15,954 nt of DNA from Saprospiraceae bacterium (GTDB lineage Bacteria; Bacteroidota; Bacteroidia; Chitinophagales; Saprospiraceae). Within the stretch, counting starts at the first letter, position 1, and each line of letters opens with the position of its first letter. The stretch covers positions 1 through 15,954 of the forward strand of contig SKLY01000201.1 of the NCBI GenBank assembly GCA_007121335.1, written 5' to 3'. The notes beneath the pieces were generated by a model, which made no database searches, was not told where the DNA came from, and was given only the letters and a program-made list of their open reading frames with translations. A program made the position numbers and the translations under genes. Of this stretch, positions 1 to 15,954 are shown piece after piece.

Positions 1-1651
1 GCATCTTACGCAGGGGAATTCCGGTCCATCGGGAAACAACCTCTGCGATATCGTTGGCAGTAACTTCGTCCTTGGTAAATCTTCGCTCTTCAGGCAGTGC
101 ATCCAATTTTTCCTCCGCCACCCTCAACATGGCCTCCTTTTCCTTTAACTCGCCATAGCGGATTTTAGCTACCAATTCGTAGTTACTATCCCTTTCAGCG
201 CGCTGTGCCTGAATTTCCAATTCTTCAATATCCTTTCTAATACTTTGGATGGTATCCACAATTTCCTTCTCATTATTCCAACCTGCTTTTAGCTCATCCA
301 GCTTCTCCCTTGCATTCGCAATCTGTTCGTTGATGGCTTCAATTTGGCGCTTGTTTTTCTCCCTTTTAAAGTGCTCTTTTTCAATCTCGAGCTGTCGAAC
401 CTTTCTGTCCCACTCATCGATCACCTCGGGCACGGAATCCAATTCCAATCTGAGTTTGGCAGCAGCCTCATCAATGAGGTCAATGGCCTTGTCGGGCAAC
501 TGCCGGTCAGTGATGTAGCGGTCTGATAGTTCCGCAGCGGCAATGAGTGCCTCGTCCAAAATCTCAATTTTGTGATACACCTCATAGCGCTCTTGCAATC
601 CCCTCAAAATGGTAATGGTGTCATCCACGGAGGGCTGACCGATAACCACCTTCTGAAACCGCCTCTCCAGAGCTTTATCGCTCTCGAAATATTTCTGATA
701 CTCATCAAGGGTGGTTGCACCTATGGTCCTGAGTTCACCGCGAGCCAAAGCGGGCTTCAGGATGTTGGCAGCATCCATGGCTCCGCCTCCGCCGCCGGCA
801 CCGATAAGAGTGTGTATCTCATCAATAAACAGAATAATCCGGCCATCAGAGGAAGTAACCTCCTTAATTACGGCTTTCAACCGCTCCTCAAATTCACCTT
901 TGTACTTGGCTCCGGCTATAAGAGAGGCGAGGTCTAGTGTGTATATTTTTTTATTGCCGAGATTCTCAGGAATATCTCCCTTCACTATGCGCCAGGCAAT
1001 CCCCTCAATAATCGCGGTTTTTCCGACACCGGCATCTCCAATCAATATGGGGTTGTTCTTTTTCCGTCGGCTCAGTATATGCATGACCCTGCGGATCTCC
1101 TCATCTCGCCCAATAATGGGGTCGAGCTTCCCGCTCTCAGCCTGCTCGTTGAGATTGATGGCATATTTATCGAGGGCATTGTACTGATTGTCAGCCTGCT
1201 GATCTTTGACCCGGCTTCCCTTTCGCAATTCTCCGATGGCATCCTTCATCTTTTTTTCGGTGGCGCCAGCATCTTTTAGAATGGCTGAGCCCTTGTCGTT
1301 ACCTTGCAAAATACCGAGAATAATCAATTCGAGGGAAATGTACTCATCCTTAAATTCCTTCATTAGATTTCTCGCGCGATTGAGCGCCTGATTGGAATCA
1401 TTAGTGAGATACTGCTTATCGCTTCCCTCCACTTTGGGGTAGGACTCTATCGCTTTGTCAACAGCGGTCTTTACCGTTGGATAGTTCACGCCCATTTTGC
1501 CTAGCAAAAAGGAAAACACATCCTCTCCTTCCTCCATAATTCCTTTGAGAAGATGGGGTGTATCAACAGTCTGTTGGTTGTATCCCTGCGCAATCTGCTG
1601 GGCCTTGAGAATGGCCTCCTGGGATTTTACGGTGAAATTTTCAAATGTCAT
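1..1651 (-). CDS. clpB: ATP-dependent chaperone ClpB (Hsp100 disaggregase). The N-terminal part including the D1 AAA+ domain and the coiled-coil M-domain is present; the C-terminus is cut by the window edge.
   Basis: The reverse-complement translation from ATG at 1649-1651 reads MTFENFTVKSQEAILKAQQIA... It contains the D1 Walker A (GDAGVGKTAI), a ClpB-type ILFIDEIHTLIGAGGGGGAMDAAN block and a long coiled-coil M-domain rich in EL/KE heptads. Plus-strand ORFs in 249-1793 are antisense shadows of this frame. Confidence 0.93.
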   Translation of the reverse strand, partial: MTFENFTVKSQEAILKAQQIAQGYNQQTVDTPHLLKGIMEEGEDVFSFLLGKMGVNYPTVKTAVDKAIESYPKVEGSDKQYLTNDSNQALNRARNLMKEFKDEYISLELIILGILQGNDKGSAILKDAGATEKKMKDAIGELRKGSRVKDQQADNQYNALDKYAINLNEQAESGKLDPIIGRDEEIRRVMHILSRRKKNNPILIGDAGVGKTAIIEGIAWRIVKGDIPENLGNKKIYTLDLASLIAGAKYKGEFEERLKAVIKEVTSSDGRIILFIDEIHTLIGAGGGGGAMDAANILKPALARGELRTIGATTLDEYQKYFESDKALERRFQKVVIGQPSVDDTITILRGLQERYEVYHKIEILDEALIAAAELSDRYITDRQLPDKAIDLIDEAAAKLRLELDSVPEVIDEWDRKVRQLEIEKEHFKREKNKRQIEAINEQIANAREKLDELKAGWNNEKEIVDTIQSIRKDIEELEIQAQRAERDSNYELVAKIRYGELKEKEAMLRVAEEKLDALPEERRFTKDEVTANDIAEVVSRWTGIPLRKM

Positions 1652-1834
1652 GGGTGGTAAATTTTTTAATTCCCTACCTGCAAAATTCCAACCACTTGTA
1701 CAAAAGCCACTTAATGCGGCCATTATGTCAGTGTGTTTCGGATTTTTTGTCAGAAATAGACTAAAAAAGACAGGTGCTTTTCCACTGAGGTAGCCGGAAT
1801 AAACTTCAGTCAAAATTGCCAATAGGCTGCAAAT

Positions 1835-3958
1835 TCATATTTCGATTCGCAGGGAAATATCCCAGTTCCTCCCGGCAGCAGTCTGATAATATCGTCCGCC
1901 AAAAGCGTTGAGGTCATTCCCCAGGCTGTAAATTGTATCAAATACATTGTCCAGTCCTGCTGAAAGAAAAATTTTATCTGCAAAACCCGTCTGGAATCCA
2001 TAGTTAAACCTCAGACTAAATACGTTCCAGGAGGATTGGAATTCAGTATTTTCATCCGTCAGCGGCAAACGGTCTGAATAGCGGTGTTGAAGATAAAGAC
2101 TCCCTGAACCAAAGAAACCAACTTTGAGCTCATTAAAGGCGGAGTGAGGAGCGACACCGGTTAGGTAATTGCCACTTAAATCAAATGGTCCAAAAATCTG
2201 ATCTCTGAAGTAGAAGAAATGTCCGGTATAAGTGTGCTTAAGTTGAATGTCAGAGAGAAAACGATTGTCGGAAGTTCGGAGCAATGGGTAGTTCAGTGAA
2301 AATTCCACGCCGAACTGATTCGTTCCACCGGAATTTCGGAACAGTACCACTCCGTCTTCATTGGTAAAGGTAGAAATAGACTCTGACAAGCGGTAGTAGA
2401 AGGTCGAAAGGTCCCAATGAACTCCCCTTTGTGGCATTATTCCCCGGTAACCCAATTCGAAATTCAATCCCCGTTCCGCTTCCAAATCTTCATTTAAACT
2501 GCCCTCGTTGGTGCGAAATTCGTCCAATGTAGGTGGCGAAAATCCCGCACTAACTGATGCAAACATAGATGATGTCTCATTGAATTTGTAAGAGGCAGCA
2601 ATCCGCGGCACCCATTCAGCTTGAAAATTTCTGGAAACTGCAAAGGGCGTTCCGGTTAGATTATCCACATTGCGGTCCACTTTGTAACCCACTGTATTTC
2701 GACTCAAACCCAGGGTCAACAACCAGTCACTACTCAATTCAGCCTCTGCCTGGGTGAAGAAAAAATAATTCCTGGTCCTGATGTCGTCGGCAAACCGCAT
2801 GGTGTCGCGGACGCCTTCTTTATTGCCAAAATTCCTGGCCGAAACCCTTCCCTGTTGAAATTCAGCACCCAGGACCAACCTCAACGGCAGACCGGCCAGG
2901 ACAGCATCTTTCCTAAAAACAGTGCGACCTCCGTAATCAGTACCCAAATCTTTTTTGTAATCGAGGATAAAGGGGTGGTCAAAATCCGTATTGGAGAGGA
3001 AAACAGAGCTGGAATTGGTAACATTGTTGCCCAAATTGCGCTCTATGGTGAAGCCAGTTAAAAGGGTGCGCTGCCGGATTGAGGAGTTTTGCTCTATACT
3101 GCCGGGACGAGACTGATACGGATCCTCTTTGAACTGCCCTAGAGTCAAACCACCGGGGATTTGATAAAAAAGGTCGGAATACAGAACATGAAAGCCCACC
3201 GGTTGATCGGCTGTGGGAAACCATCTGCCCGAAAAATTAAATACGGTGCGCTCCGTGCGGCTGTGTTCGCGGTGTCCATCGGATCGAAAATGATGAAGCC
3301 CCGCCGTGTATTGCATATCATCGGTAGCTCCGGACTTTTTCAAGCCCAGTCGATACATGTCAAATGAACCTGTGGCAGTTTGAGCAGTCAACCGGGACTC
3401 CTCATCTGAAAGGCGATTACTGAATTTTAATACGCCTCCATTTCCGGCACCGTAAATACTTCCAGCCGGCCCCTTCAGAATTTCGATTTGATCGGTTACA
3501 GCCACATCCAGTATATTGAGTGCTGTGGTCCCGTCGGCCAGTGTCAGTGGGAGATCGTTCCAGTAAACCTTAACATTTCGAACACCAAAGGGAGCGCGAA
3601 GAGAACTACCCCTCACCGACACCCTGTAGCTCGAAGGTGCACGTTGTTCAAGTCGCACCCCCGGCCTGGAATTGATGGCTTCATTCAAGCTCCTGCTTCC
3701 AAACGCCTCAAAATCTGCCGGACCCAACCGCTCTATCCCAGCAGCTTGTTGCAACAGCGGCCGATCACTCTCAAAGGCCCTTATCTCCACTTCGGGTAAA
3801 TATTCTCCACTTATTGGTTGTATGGTATCTTTAGCAGTTGTTGATGCATTTAAAAGGGAAGATGCATGAACGATATGATTAAAAGAAAACAGCAGAAAAA
3901 AAACCGGCAAAACCAACCTGGCTTTACTGATGAAGATGCATTGTAGTCCTTTTCTCAT
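1835..3958 (-). CDS. TonB-dependent outer-membrane receptor of about 700 aa (small-substrate class, not SusC-like), with plug and barrel.
   Basis: A 707-aa ORF with an N-terminal signal peptide (MRKGLQCIFISKARLVLPVFFLLFSFNHIVHA). It has a TonB-box-like LPEVEIRA, plug-domain motifs (RVSVRGSS..., NVKVYWNDLPL, IEILKGPAGSIYG) and a long beta-barrel rich in aromatic/Gly alternations. Confidence 0.88.
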   Translation of the reverse strand: MRKGLQCIFISKARLVLPVFFLLFSFNHIVHASSLLNASTTAKDTIQPISGEYLPEVEIRAFESDRPLLQQAAGIERLGPADFEAFGSRSLNEAINSRPGVRLEQRAPSSYRVSVRGSSLRAPFGVRNVKVYWNDLPLTLADGTTALNILDVAVTDQIEILKGPAGSIYGAGNGGVLKFSNRLSDEESRLTAQTATGSFDMYRLGLKKSGATDDMQYTAGLHHFRSDGHREHSRTERTVFNFSGRWFPTADQPVGFHVLYSDLFYQIPGGLTLGQFKEDPYQSRPGSIEQNSSIRQRTLLTGFTIERNLGNNVTNSSSVFLSNTDFDHPFILDYKKDLGTDYGGRTVFRKDAVLAGLPLRLVLGAEFQQGRVSARNFGNKEGVRDTMRFADDIRTRNYFFFTQAEAELSSDWLLTLGLSRNTVGYKVDRNVDNLTGTPFAVSRNFQAEWVPRIAASYKFNETSSMFASVSAGFSPPTLDEFRTNEGSLNEDLEAERGLNFELGYRGIMPQRGVHWDLSTFYYRLSESISTFTNEDGVVLFRNSGGTNQFGVEFSLNYPLLRTSDNRFLSDIQLKHTYTGHFFYFRDQIFGPFDLSGNYLTGVAPHSAFNELKVGFFGSGSLYLQHRYSDRLPLTDENTEFQSSWNVFSLRFNYGFQTGFADKIFLSAGLDNVFDTIYSLGNDLNAFGGRYYQTAAGRNWDISLRIEI

Positions 3959-12080: not shown

Positions 12081-12674
12081 ATGGACCGAATAAAAAAATG
12101 GTTTGGAGCCGGGGAAAAGAAGTCGGAAGAAGCCGGACAAGCCTATAAAAGTGAGCTGGAAGACGACATCGTCAATCGCGATGATTTCCTCAAATGGTCA
12201 GATAAAAAAGGTATCCTGGCTGACTTCCTTAAGGACCTGAGGACTGAATACGGCAAATATCTGACAGAGTCTGAGGAGCACGAAGAGTGGGTGGATTTTC
12301 TCAGAAGTCAGGGAGCAGATGGGTTCATGGTTCATACGCAAAAATACCCCGGAACCCTGTCCAAATGGATATATTTGGCAGAATACCTCAAAGACCAGAC
12401 GATGAGCTGGGGCTATAAACTATACTCCTCCGAAGAAGGCTCTGATGGCGGCGATGCCCCGGTCACTTATTTGAGATACTACTTTAAACCACCGATTAAA
12501 AACAAGCTTTCCAAACCCATTGACCAAATTTTTGGCAACATCACCATCGAGCTGAAAATGAGTGACGGCAATTCCGAATCACTGAAATACCAGGCACTCC
12601 ACTACAGCGACCGAAACTATCAGCCACCGAGAAATATCGGCCTTTTGTATGAGAGTATTTTTGAGCAGGAGTGA
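12081..12674 (+). CDS. Hypothetical cytoplasmic acidic protein of about 197 aa, with no recognisable domain.
   Basis: The ORF has host-like GC of about 50% and begins MDRIKKWFGAGEKK... It has no signal peptide and is rich in E/D/K/Y/W. The track's TTG start at 12030 is possible, but ATG 12081 is preferred. Confidence 0.6.
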   Translation: MDRIKKWFGAGEKKSEEAGQAYKSELEDDIVNRDDFLKWSDKKGILADFLKDLRTEYGKYLTESEEHEEWVDFLRSQGADGFMVHTQKYPGTLSKWIYLAEYLKDQTMSWGYKLYSSEEGSDGGDAPVTYLRYYFKPPIKNKLSKPIDQIFGNITIELKMSDGNSESLKYQALHYSDRNYQPPRNIGLLYESIFEQE

Positions 12675-12688
12675 GGTACAGTTAATTG

Positions 12689-12708
12689 ATGAGTCCACTC
12701 CAAAAACC
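12689..12708 (+). repeat. Left terminal inverted repeat (20 bp) atgagtccactccaaaaacc.
   Basis: It is the reverse complement, at 19/20 positions, of 12977-12996 (ggttttcggagtggactcat). The core atgagtccactcc is a 13/13 match. Confidence 0.9.
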
Positions 12709-12976
12709 TCTTTTTATTACAAATGGCTGCAAAGGCCAATTTCTTCGCCCCCTCCCCAAAGCATAGCCTGCCCCCCCAAAGCATTGGGGGGGCGGGAGGA
12801 CAAGAAAGCTATGGGGGTCTTTCCTCAACGTAGCTAAGGCTACGACTGAGGGCTACCCACCCGCTTCGCGGTTCAATCGCTTGAATGTCCCCCGGACGTT
12901 CACTCCCTAAACGGGGGATCGGTCTTTCACCTTCTTCCTCGATCTTGAATTTTTCGCTCATTTTCATGCACAAATT

Positions 12977-12996
12977 GGTTTTCGGAGTGGACTCAT
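12977..12996 (+). repeat. Right terminal inverted repeat (20 bp).
   Basis: ggttttcggagtggactcat is the reverse complement of the left IR at 19/20 positions. Confidence 0.9.
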
Positions 12997-13025
12997 TTAT
13001 TTGTGTTAACGTAATGTTAAATTTT

Positions 13026-13033
13026 TGGGGGGG
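13026..13033 (+). repeat. G8 homopolymer tract about 60 nt upstream of the Cys-rich ORF start.
   Basis: tttttgggggggg is read directly from the sequence. It is the longest G/C run in the window and sits in an otherwise AT-rich intergenic region. Confidence 0.9.
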
Positions 13034-13093
13034 GAATTTTTCTTGTAAACCTTCCGTTGCACACATGAAACTTTACAAAAACATAAAATTTGA

Positions 13094-13492
13094 GTGGTGA
13101 AATTAACAACCTTATTTACGTCAATTTACTTCTTAGTAGTTATTTCGTTAGGATTTCTTTATCATCCTAATAATTTTGAATCAAATACAATTACTTCATA
13201 TATTTCTTCAGCAGAAGGTTCAATTGAATCCAACAAAGAGGCACATTATTTTTTACCGCGATTTACGTTGGTTCAATATAATTGTACGGCAAGTGTATTT
13301 GCCTATTGTTGTTGCCATTGTGTTGGAGACGCACCCTGCTCAATGACATGTTATGAAGCACCAGGGAATTTTTTTGCGTGCCATTTTGGTGGAGGATTTG
13401 AATGCTCACCCTCTAGCTTAGGATTATGTGTAGTAAACCCTGGTCAGGAATGTATGGGGGAAAGTTGTTGCAGGCCGTGTTGGGGACCTTAA
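13094..13492 (+). CDS. Small signal-anchored cysteine-rich protein of 132 aa, with 14 Cys in the last 69 residues and a CCCHC motif. It could be a secreted Cys-rich peptide, toxin or RiPP-like precursor.
   Basis: A 399-nt ORF in roughly 30% GC DNA is unlikely by chance. It starts at GTG (13094 or 13097) with no ATG available. The N-terminal hydrophobic segment is LFTSIYFLVVISLGFLYHP. The C-terminus is YCCCHCVGDAPCSMTCYEAPGNFFACHFGGGFECSPSSLGLCVVNPGQECMGESCCRPCWGP. Confidence 0.5.
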   Translation: MVKLTTLFTSIYFLVVISLGFLYHPNNFESNTITSYISSAEGSIESNKEAHYFLPRFTLVQYNCTASVFAYCCCHCVGDAPCSMTCYEAPGNFFACHFGGGFECSPSSLGLCVVNPGQECMGESCCRPCWGP

Positions 13493-13544
13493 ACTTACTT
13501 AAACTGTCTGATAATTATTTTTATACTTTTTCAAATCATTAATT

Positions 13545-15134
13545 ATGAACTTGTTGTACAATACTTCTGGTTTGCTTAGGCAAAAATCACTTTACATAAT
13601 TGGTTTGATTGGTTTTGGTGGTTTATTATTCTACACCATTCCCTCGTATTATTATTCACAATTTGGAGAATCTCAATCCCCGGTAGAATTGGATGAACGC
13701 AATTTATCCGAAATTTGGGACTTTAGCATTGAAACCGATGGTGTGAATTTATTTTATGACACCCTTTTATTAACACCACTTCAACCAAATCCCTATTCTA
13801 ATCTTAATCGGGTCTTTAAACAAGAAGTGATTAATGAAAATCTCTATATGATGACCGAAGAAATGCCCGGGCAGGTTTTTAAGTATGGAACAGATGGAAC
13901 TTTCAAAGGGGTGATTGGAAGTACTAATTCTCAAGGTATGTCACGTAACTTTACATTCGACATATGCCCTGAAAGCGGGAATATAATTATTGCAAATACC
14001 TTAGATTCGACCATCAAAATTTATTCTCCTAAAGGGGAATTGCTCCGGAAAAAAGAGCCTGATTTCTTCTTCATAGACTTCAAATACTTTAGCAGCACAT
14101 CTAATTTCCTATTCCTTATCATTCAACCTGATCCCGGTTTTTCAATAAGCCAGCACCATAAACTCTACCTGGCAGATAGCAATATTACTATAATTGATAG
14201 TTTGTTTCCGTTTACTCCAAATCAATTGCATAAAGAACTCGGAGTATCCAGATCACTTAAGCAAAACCCAAATAAAGCCAATAAAGTATTTTTTGCAGAC
14301 ATGCTTCTGGGTGAAATTTATGAGATAGATGACAACGGCAATAAAACCTTAGCTTATAAAGTGGAGGATGGTATTGAAAACAGGGCAGATTCTTTAAGTG
14401 CCTTAAACCCCAATAACCTTAATAATCAAGATGTTAATAATAATCTTAAGTTCTATTCCATATTCGATTATCACCCTGGAAGTAATTTATTAGCGGTAGC
14501 TAAAACTAGCCTTGAGGGTCCCCGAAAAAACCTGATTTTTTCAAAGGATCACGGTACCGGATTAAAATTTGCCAGAGGAATTCGTTCGACGGGACCCTTT
14601 TTGGAAGGCCATCCCTTTATGTTTCACTTTGGTATTATTGACTTTATGAAAGACGATACGATAGGAACTATTATATCACCTGATTTGTGGAGTTTTATGA
14701 AGCCAACACTAACAGATCCTTCGATTGTTTTGGATCATACGATCCATTTGCCAGATTCTATTGAATATCCAATCCTGAAAATGGCAGTTTTAAAGGAAAG
14801 TTTCTTCGATGAAGAAGCATTGTCCTATTCCCGTTTAATTGATAAAAGTGAGTCAAGTAATAATGATTCGGGACAGAAATCCGATTACTTTTTGTATCCT
14901 AATCCAACAACAGGATTTGTACAAGTAGGAACCCATTCTTCCCAGAACAAGGAGGATTTAAGAAATATGACAGTAAAAATCTTTAATATTAATGGAGAGT
15001 TACTTGGAGAGTTTCCAGCAGAGAGCAAAATTGATTTAAGACAATTGGCAATTAGGACCGGAACCTATTTATTCTCTTTAGAAAATGAACTGGGTGAGCA
15101 AATTACTTCCAGGCCATTTTTATATCACTATTGA
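13545..15134 (+). CDS. T9SS-secreted cargo protein of 529 aa: N-terminal hydrophobic signal/anchor, central beta-propeller-like domain of unknown function and C-terminal Por-secretion-system sorting domain (type A CTD).
   Basis: The C-terminal ~80 aa read ...DYFLYPNPTTGFVQVG...MTVKIFNINGELLGEFPA...LRQLAIRTGTYLFSLENELGEQITSRPF... They carry the YPNPttG, IfninGelv and GtYlfsl hallmarks of the T9SS CTD. The middle region has Gly/Thr/Asp-rich strands (KYGTDGTFKGVIGST..., IIIANTLDSTIKIYSPKGELL) suggesting a beta-propeller or NHL-like fold. Confidence 0.8.
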   Translation: MNLLYNTSGLLRQKSLYIIGLIGFGGLLFYTIPSYYYSQFGESQSPVELDERNLSEIWDFSIETDGVNLFYDTLLLTPLQPNPYSNLNRVFKQEVINENLYMMTEEMPGQVFKYGTDGTFKGVIGSTNSQGMSRNFTFDICPESGNIIIANTLDSTIKIYSPKGELLRKKEPDFFFIDFKYFSSTSNFLFLIIQPDPGFSISQHHKLYLADSNITIIDSLFPFTPNQLHKELGVSRSLKQNPNKANKVFFADMLLGEIYEIDDNGNKTLAYKVEDGIENRADSLSALNPNNLNNQDVNNNLKFYSIFDYHPGSNLLAVAKTSLEGPRKNLIFSKDHGTGLKFARGIRSTGPFLEGHPFMFHFGIIDFMKDDTIGTIISPDLWSFMKPTLTDPSIVLDHTIHLPDSIEYPILKMAVLKESFFDEEALSYSRLIDKSESSNNDSGQKSDYFLYPNPTTGFVQVGTHSSQNKEDLRNMTVKIFNINGELLGEFPAESKIDLRQLAIRTGTYLFSLENELGEQITSRPFLYHY

Positions 15135-15249
15135 GTCAACCTTTCATTATTAATGAAAAAACGCTCGATGTGACATATTAATCATGGCTACTGGTACTTT
15201 AAATTTTTCCGTCCTTAATATATACAACCAAAAAACAATTCCCGGGCCA

Positions 15250-15954
15250 TTAAGGCAAGAAAGCCACAACACGAAGCGGCGCACCACTGCCGCCCCTGAT
15301 TGTCCTAGGTAAAGCCATAATCCAGAATCCCTCTGGCGGGAGTTCGTCCAGGTAGGCGAGGTTTTCATAGGCTGTCACGCCCTGGGCAAACAAAATGCGA
15401 TGGGTCATAAAGCCTTTCGATTTCCCGTAATCGATGCCTGAGGTGTCGAGACCAACGGCTTTTATATCTCTGTTTTCAACCAACCAGGTGGCTGCATGGG
15501 GGTGTATGCCCGGAAAGGATAGATTGTCAACACCTTCCTGTCTGCTGAGGTCGGTTCCGGTATACGCCAATTTGTCGGGATAAAACTTCCAAAATCTAGT
15601 GTTGAAAAGTACGATGGCACCATGTGGTATGCGTCCGTGTTCCTCCTCCCATGCCTGCAAATCACCGACCGTTATTTGATAATCTCGATCACTGGCCGCC
15701 TGGGATTTTACATCCACTAAAATTCCCGGCCCGTTTAGTTGGTCTATTCCGATTTGATCTACCGTTTTGCCATTTTCTGCAAAATGAATGGGCGCATCAA
15801 AATGGGTTTCTCCGTGCTCTTCGGCTGCAAAGTGAAAGGAAGAATAGTAATAACCCCCTTCGGTAATTCCGTCAAAAACAGTGTCGTGAGAAAAGGGAAT
15901 ATTGGTAGGCCAATAGATCGACTCCTCGTCAAAAGCCCAGGTCAGATCAATCCA
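15250..15954 (-). CDS. Cyclase-family / kynurenine formamidase-like metal hydrolase (PF04199-type). The C-terminus is present; the N-terminus lies beyond the window.
   Basis: The reverse-complement translation runs into the window edge as WIDLTWAFDEESIYWPTNIPF...HFAAEEHGETHFDAPIHFAENGKTVDQIGIDQLNGPGILVDVKS... It contains the HxGTHxDAPxH cyclase-family metal-binding motif. The track's 155-aa ORF is only the part after an internal Met. Confidence 0.82.
   Translation of the reverse strand, partial: WIDLTWAFDEESIYWPTNIPFSHDTVFDGITEGGYYYSSFHFAAEEHGETHFDAPIHFAENGKTVDQIGIDQLNGPGILVDVKSQAASDRDYQITVGDLQAWEEEHGRIPHGAIVLFNTRFWKFYPDKLAYTGTDLSRQEGVDNLSFPGIHPHAATWLVENRDIKAVGLDTSGIDYGKSKGFMTHRILFAQGVTAYENLAYLDELPPEGFWIMALPRTIRGGSGAPLRVVAFLP

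Follow-up and report, generated by a model that had tools for sequence, protein, structure and literature searches.

A 304-bp segment upstream of a secreted-protein cassette in a Saprospiraceae bacterium: very likely a MITE belonging to a widespread insertion sequence family that is distantly IS1182-like

The DNA analysed here (the window, 15,954 nt) comes from a Saprospiraceae bacterium. A gene for a 197-aa protein ends at position 12674 and lies in DNA of 45–50% GC. Downstream, an ORF starting at 13094 encodes a 132-aa protein which contains 14 Cys and whose N-terminus is hydrophobic, and a 529-aa protein of the same cassette carries a Por_Secre_tail T9SS sorting domain (Pfam, E = 4e-9). This downstream segment has a GC content of 30–39% vs 45–50% in its flanks. 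GC content, ORFs and Pfam matches agree with the initial annotation of the region, which described a non-coding segment between a gene of host-like GC content and an AT-rich cassette for a Cys-rich protein and a T9SS cargo.

The non-coding segment is bounded by inverted repeats. The left arm (12689–12708) reads ATGAGTCCACTCCAAAAACC, and the right arm, as the reverse complement of 12977–12996, reads ATGAGTCCACTCCGAAAACC. The two are identical at 19 of 20 positions, and the repeat pair was thus recovered on re-inspection as described. When up to 3 mismatches were allowed, the arm occurred in the window at these 2 sites only, while 0.00 were expected from 200 dinucleotide shuffles. The exact ends of the segment, initially given as 308 bp, had to be refined. 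Comparison with the family of related elements shows that the outer ‘AT’ of both 20-nt arms is part of a 6-bp target-site duplication (TSD) and that the element proper comprises 304 bp (12691–12994) with terminal inverted repeats (TIRs) of 18 nt, complementary at 17 of 18 positions (Table 1). The TIR of the family is 18 nt long and reads GAGTCCACTCC(R)AAAACC; it is also written as GAGTCCACTCCRAAAACC. The TSD of the window copy is imperfect. Short ORFs which overlap the element (54–85 aa) all cross its boundaries into the flanks, and no Pfam match was found for the two that were scanned. An 85-aa ORF on the minus strand (12809–13066), annotated in public assemblies, starts in the spacer and enters the element. 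No Pfam match was obtained for it, and the repeat has very probably given rise to a spurious gene call here.

Table 1. Features of the probable MITE and its flanks (window coordinates; A1, alignment of related elements)
Feature	Position	Strand	Evidence
TSD, left copy, ATTGAT	12685–12690	.	5/6 match to the right copy; family consensus ATNNAT
Left 18-nt TIR, GAGTCCACTCCAAAAACC	12691–12708	+	Same terminus at ≥105 loci and on transposase-bearing elements
MITE body, 304 bp, without transposase	12691–12994	+	Homology to 181–325-bp elements of Saprospirales MAGs
Left subterminal region, subfamily-conserved	12709–12752	+	84–94% identity to many copies; columns mostly invariant (A1)
GC-rich nested-hairpin expansion, ~50–52 nt, private	12753–12804	+	Absent from every aligned relative
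Internal two-hairpin GC-rich module	12850–12905	+	8 aligned instances from 7 elements
Right subterminal region, subfamily-conserved	12925–12976	+	Most copies 88–100% identical over 31–50 nt; A1 agrees
Right 18-nt TIR, reverse complement GAGTCCACTCCGAAAACC	12977–12994	−	Pairs with the left TIR; same terminus at ≥105 loci
TSD, right copy, ATTTAT	12995–13000	.	Family TSD analysis

The terminus is not confined to this locus. A scan with the exact 20-mer terminus against one genome per prokaryotic species returned at least 105 loci in at least 43 assemblies, with at least 17, 12, 8, 8 and 5 loci in single metagenome-assembled genomes (MAGs). Dispersal on this scale, which the initial annotation had named as a sign of a MITE, indeed points to one. 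The carriers include soda-lake Saprospirales/Saprospiraceae, rumen Prevotellaceae, an Acidobacteriota, Cloacimonadota and others; a scan of viral contigs for the terminus gave 0 matches. Among the matches listed, 32 of 105 termini lie less than 200 nt from a contig end where 0.7% would be expected, an enrichment which is typical of an assembly-breaking repeat. For the window's own genome, copy number was inferred solely from contig breaks: in three assemblies of the locus, the contig breaks within the element or at its edge. A fuzzy search yielded 59 convergent pairs of termini among the matches listed, most of which enclose ORF-less elements of ~54–325 bp with size modes near 113, 155, 181–182, 246 and 308–325 bp. 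Two long pairs, L070 (2053 bp) and L053 (2913 bp), were considered as composite transposons and rejected, given that they contain ordinary host genes and lack TSDs; each is treated as two separate elements.

Many copies of the family share a common layout, ATNNAT|GAGTCC...GGACTC|ATNNAT. A direct repeat of 6 bp abutting GAGTCC...GGACTC is perfect in 30 of 50 pairs, compared with 2.8 for shuffled partners, and matches at five or more of its six positions in 44 of 50. No other repeat length between 3 and 10 nt ever gave more than 3 perfect repeats. Furthermore, where copies have non-AT flanks, both sides change together (13 of 19). The 6-nt repeat at the GAGTCC boundary therefore indicates 18-nt TIRs and a 6-bp duplication of an ATNNAT target, so that TSDs, the second sign of a MITE put forward in the initial annotation, are present across the family. 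A model with a 2-bp TSD and ATGAGTCC termini was rejected. The flanks co-vary with the terminal dinucleotide, perfect repeats occur only at n = 6, and the apparent score at n = 2 results from the conserved AT only.

Tandem arrangements are also seen. In L103 (7175–7998) and L015 (5363–5630), two to three MITEs of the family lie in tandem, with one 6-bp ATTAAT common to adjacent copies. Such arrays fit the ATNNAT target preference and suggest that elements have inserted repeatedly at an ATNNAT site which each duplication regenerates.

The same termini also bound autonomous elements. These measure ~1.8–1.9 kb, have TIRs of 16–20 nt and contain one ORF of 556–585 aa. The L020 element (1824 bp, TSD ATATAT) harbors a single 578-aa ORF whose product shows the Pfam domains DUF772 and DDE_Tnp_1_6. 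Its best NCBIfam model is transpos_IS1182 (E = 8.5e-24, positions 37–487 of 488), with a score of 84 bits vs a cutoff of 270; since the score is below the cutoff, the partner is assigned to this family only approximately. A second full-length element, L047 (1897 bp), has a degenerate right TIR, and its transposase shares 49% identity with the L020 protein, while the 829-bp element L024 keeps a remnant of the transposase and is a deletion intermediate or derivative. Elements of the IS1182 family, as known from ISfinder, span ~1.3–2 kb, and the 1824- and 1897-bp partners fit this range as well as the single ORF and the TIRs. Homologues of the L020 transposase are numerous in Bacteria and Archaea alike, with more than 2,100 protein clusters at E < 1e-10, mostly on contigs of ~2 kb. 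The nearest annotated plasmid-borne relatives are haloarchaeal proteins named ‘transposase’ (25–27% identity), and plasmid-borne ‘IS1182 family transposase’ proteins are 21–23% identical to the transposase of the family. Six further contigs (L124–L129) carry four additional homologues, 58–64% identical to the L020 transposase, and all end in GAGTNCACTCTAAAAA. The TSDs of these full-length copies mostly do not match, which may be due to chimeric assembly of a 2-kb repeat or to recombination between copies.

One of the six contigs, L124, belongs to the closed 2.3-Mb genome of a Thermoplasmatales archaeon (CP070724.1). Positions 1390–3201 hold a full-length insertion sequence (IS) of the family with termini GAGTCCACTCTAAAAA and GAGCGCACTCTAAAAA and a transposase 64% identical to that of L020. 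A full-length IS in a closed archaeal genome means that the IS family spans Bacteria and Archaea.

We therefore regard the segment, with high confidence, as a MITE, namely a 304-bp non-autonomous derivative of a widespread and distantly IS1182-like IS family. Five features by which MITEs are recognized were seen: TIRs, an abutting TSD, a small size without a transposase, multiple copies within the family and an autonomous partner with the same TIRs. In the proposed mechanism, a transposase supplied in trans would bind both TIRs, cut the AT-rich spacer with a 6-bp stagger at a point 10 nt past the stop codon of the upstream gene, and insert the element there. Several parts of this mechanism are directly observed: the TIRs on autonomous elements, the 6-bp AT-rich ATNNAT duplication and a family with many copies in many genomes. 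With one mismatch in the TIRs and one in the TSD, the window copy is not a fresh insertion and is slightly decayed. Judged from its sequence, the inverted repeat is a putative transposase-binding terminus common to several phyla and not a locus-specific recombination site. Transcriptional insulation, structure in the 5′-UTR or any other putative effect on the secreted-protein genes downstream would be a by-product of insertion.

The state of the locus was followed in public assemblies. It was recovered on 10 independent contigs, from JGI soda-lake sediments, ENA, four NCBI MAGs and two Logan runs. Soda-lake samples with this locus include SRR490155, SRR7083934 and JGI 3300000362 and 3300000365. 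Over the 700 nt of 12501–13200, the 7 distinct spanning contigs, from several samples, are all 100% identical, collinear and in one orientation; assemblies show the majority state, and a rare inversion might escape them. Within its soda-lake population, the window copy appears to be fixed. For the upstream 197-aa protein, only five homologues were found (46–59% identity), and the three contexts examined were all non-syntenic and without an empty site. Before insertion, such a site would read ...GGTACAGTTA-ATT(G/T)AT-TTGTGTTAACG. This junction had 0 matches in a collection of metagenome contigs which lacks the samples carrying the locus, and the private GC hairpin, used as a positive control, also had 0 matches in that collection though it is present in JGI contigs. 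Owing to the failed control, both metagenome scans are uninformative.

The initial annotation left the choice between an inverton and a MITE, and preferred the former. In Bacteroidota invertons, a recombinase flips the promoter of a capsule, fimbrial or surface-protein locus, and the segment resembles them in having inverted repeats of 10–30 bp around a few hundred bp directly 5′ of surface- or secreted-protein genes. Here, a site-specific recombinase would flip the segment and thereby turn on or off the transcription of the genes for the Cys-rich protein and the T9SS cargo downstream. Repeats of 20 nt, a segment of ~300 bp, a position ~95 nt upstream of secreted/surface genes and a host among the T9SS-bearing Bacteroidota all speak for such a switch. 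However, neither promoter, invertase nor second orientation was observed. A motif search found no TAnnTTTG within 12691–12994 on either strand, in line with the earlier remark that no exact match lies inside; the closest occurrences lie at 12656 and 13171. Neither sigma-70-like nor terminator-like sites are more frequent than in shuffled sequence, and no sigma-70-like site is located inside the segment. Following the suggestion to look for a nearby invertase, we found no recombinase or invertase among the larger Pfam-scanned ORFs of the window or the adjacent genes of L106. The single orientation in the spanning contigs also argues against a switch. The repeats are also the termini of a family of transposons that has 6-bp TSDs and at least 105 dispersed copies across phyla, which would be unexpected for a locus-specific recombination site. 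We thus consider an inverton very improbable, and the MITE alternative is the one supported by dispersed copies, TSDs and transposase-bearing partners.

The interior of the MITE is highly structured. The initial annotation had called the segment hairpin-dense, and folding of the interior relative to shuffled sequence bears this out on both strands (z = −7.9 for the plus and −8.4 for the minus strand). The interior is homologous to 181–325-bp MITEs of Saprospirales MAGs. Its relatives in alignment A1 are L003, L085, L051b, L101, L084 and L025, together with the 181–187-bp elements L031, L074 and L034, and conservation among them covers about 65 nt at the left end and 60 nt at the right end. The private expansion contains a 14-nt direct repeat, CC(T/C)CCCCAAAGCAT, at 12751–12764 and 12771–12784 (repeat D5; inverted repeat I7); at the corresponding position, L003 and L074 have CCCCCAAAGCTTTGGGGG only. 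The internal module consists of two hairpins, H1 (12861–12864 with 12868–12871) and H2 (12883–12890 with 12894–12901). It is carried by the longer elements only and is doubled in L051b and L025. Across the 8 instances of the module, 97.9% of the cells are paired and 6 of 12 pairs have changed on both sides, a result equalled in 0 of 500 shuffles; slid controls reach only 25–42% pairing. As the hairpins are conserved and covary across the MITE subfamily, hairpin density is a property of the subfamily and not of the locus.

These folds raise the question of a structured non-coding RNA. The segment could be a gene for an RNA of ~300 nt with a 20-bp terminal helix, transcribed from the minus strand, where the mismatch between the arms becomes a G·U pair. 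The fold z-scores, the restriction of this G·U pair to the minus strand and the covariation of the internal hairpins across copies are consistent with this proposal. It is weakened by the conflicting strand evidence of the wobble pairs, as the terminal helix points to the minus strand, while the H2 wobble of the window pairs on the plus strand only. Moreover, members of the subfamily have no preferred direction with respect to the genes beside them (3 against 3, a crude test with n = 6 and little power). Given the conflicting strands and the absence of a bias, a function at the RNA level is unsupported. The terminal helix coincides with the TIR of a transposase and is flanked by TSDs, and both interior length and module content vary freely among copies. 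A known RNA family is ruled out: Rfam gave no match at gathering score for the whole window and chance-level matches only at E up to 10 for 12550–13150, and ARAGORN found no tRNA or tmRNA. An RNA gene is, in our estimation, about as improbable as the inverton.

A separate question is whether the hairpins of the MITE are maintained for a purpose. The covariation of the module leaves room for a selected function, and the lack of orientation bias (n = 6) together with the conflicting wobble strands argues against a role as RNA. It is unlikely, if somewhat less so than an RNA gene, that the two-hairpin module and the other conserved hairpins would be kept by functional selection and not by the mechanics of palindromes. 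If they were, they might act as a portable transcription terminator, as an insulator, as an element of RNA stability or as a site for a host factor or transposase co-factor, and a MITE inserted ahead of the secreted-protein cassette, after the upstream gene, would rewire expression of the cassette.

Finally, a palindromic repeat of the REP/BIME or another kind, if spread by a mechanism other than DDE transposition (e.g. an enzyme of the RAYT/IS200 type), would also be multi-copy, intergenic and hairpin-rich, but REPs lack the defined 18-nt TIRs and 6-bp TSDs found here and the same TIRs bound DDE-transposase elements, while a chance palindrome is excluded by the shuffles, so that we give these options next to no weight.

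MITEs derived from the IS1182 family have been documented before, for example the 160–169-bp ISMac2-derived MITEs of Methanosarcina acetivorans (PMC3852290). Like these, the window element is short, ORF-less and intergenic, has the same TIRs as a full-length IS that encodes one DDE transposase, is flanked by short TSDs and belongs to a family with multiple copies per genome. However, the TSD of the ISMac2-derived MITEs and of ISPse1 is 4 bp (PMC3852290, PMC3281130), in contrast to the 6-bp ATNNAT described here. Further differences concern the TIR, the partner and the interior. A search for the TIR string in the searchable literature returned unrelated primers only, and the partner transposase is only distantly IS1182-like, as its bit score and identities show. 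The window copy is also unusually long and contains conserved internal hairpin modules.

Correia elements of Neisseria, ERIC, RUP and BOX are likewise TIR-bounded, ORF-less, multi-copy and intergenic, form stable hairpins and can affect neighbouring transcripts. The window element shares with them its TIR-bounded, ORF-less, intergenic and stably folding nature and its membership in a multi-copy family. There is no sequence relationship, and their host ranges are narrow whereas the terminus described here spans several phyla. The MITE/IS family defined by the TIR GAGTCCACTCCRAAAACC, the 6-bp ATNNAT TSD and a distant IS1182-like transposase is a previously undescribed and very widespread one.

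Being a MITE from a many-copy IS1182-like IS and not a promoter switch, the window element is an ordinary feature. It nevertheless carries a caution, because an ORF-less segment bounded by inverted repeats upstream of Bacteroidota surface-protein genes resembles an inverton. A single check of copy number and TSDs turns such a candidate into a MITE, and screens for invertons should filter multi-copy TIRs. Furthermore, members of the family break up metagenome assemblies and can lead binning astray.

Saprospirales-type copies are present on two short contigs assigned to distant organisms, L027 (PWLM01000164, ‘Bacillus sp.’ MAG) and L074 (PWMI01000008, ‘Ca. Iainarchaeum archaeon’ MAG). Their segments are 90–94% identical to the window element, and both MAGs and the Saprospirales MAG PWJP01 stem from one series of soda-lake sediments (CSSed10). 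The two contigs are probably mis-binned.

Two observations concern the DNA to the right of the MITE. The low-GC two-gene cassette falls within 13000–15200, with the MITE exactly at its left edge, and the GC contrast suggests that the cassette is a horizontally acquired islet. Lastly, up to position 15874 the window does not differ from other assemblies of its population, and it diverges from them completely at 15875–15954, inside a cyclase gene. Past the same breakpoint, L106 and L107 (6331 onward) continue with a different sequence and a gene for an AAA_14/DUF4143 ATPase. This divergence is a strain-level structural variant.
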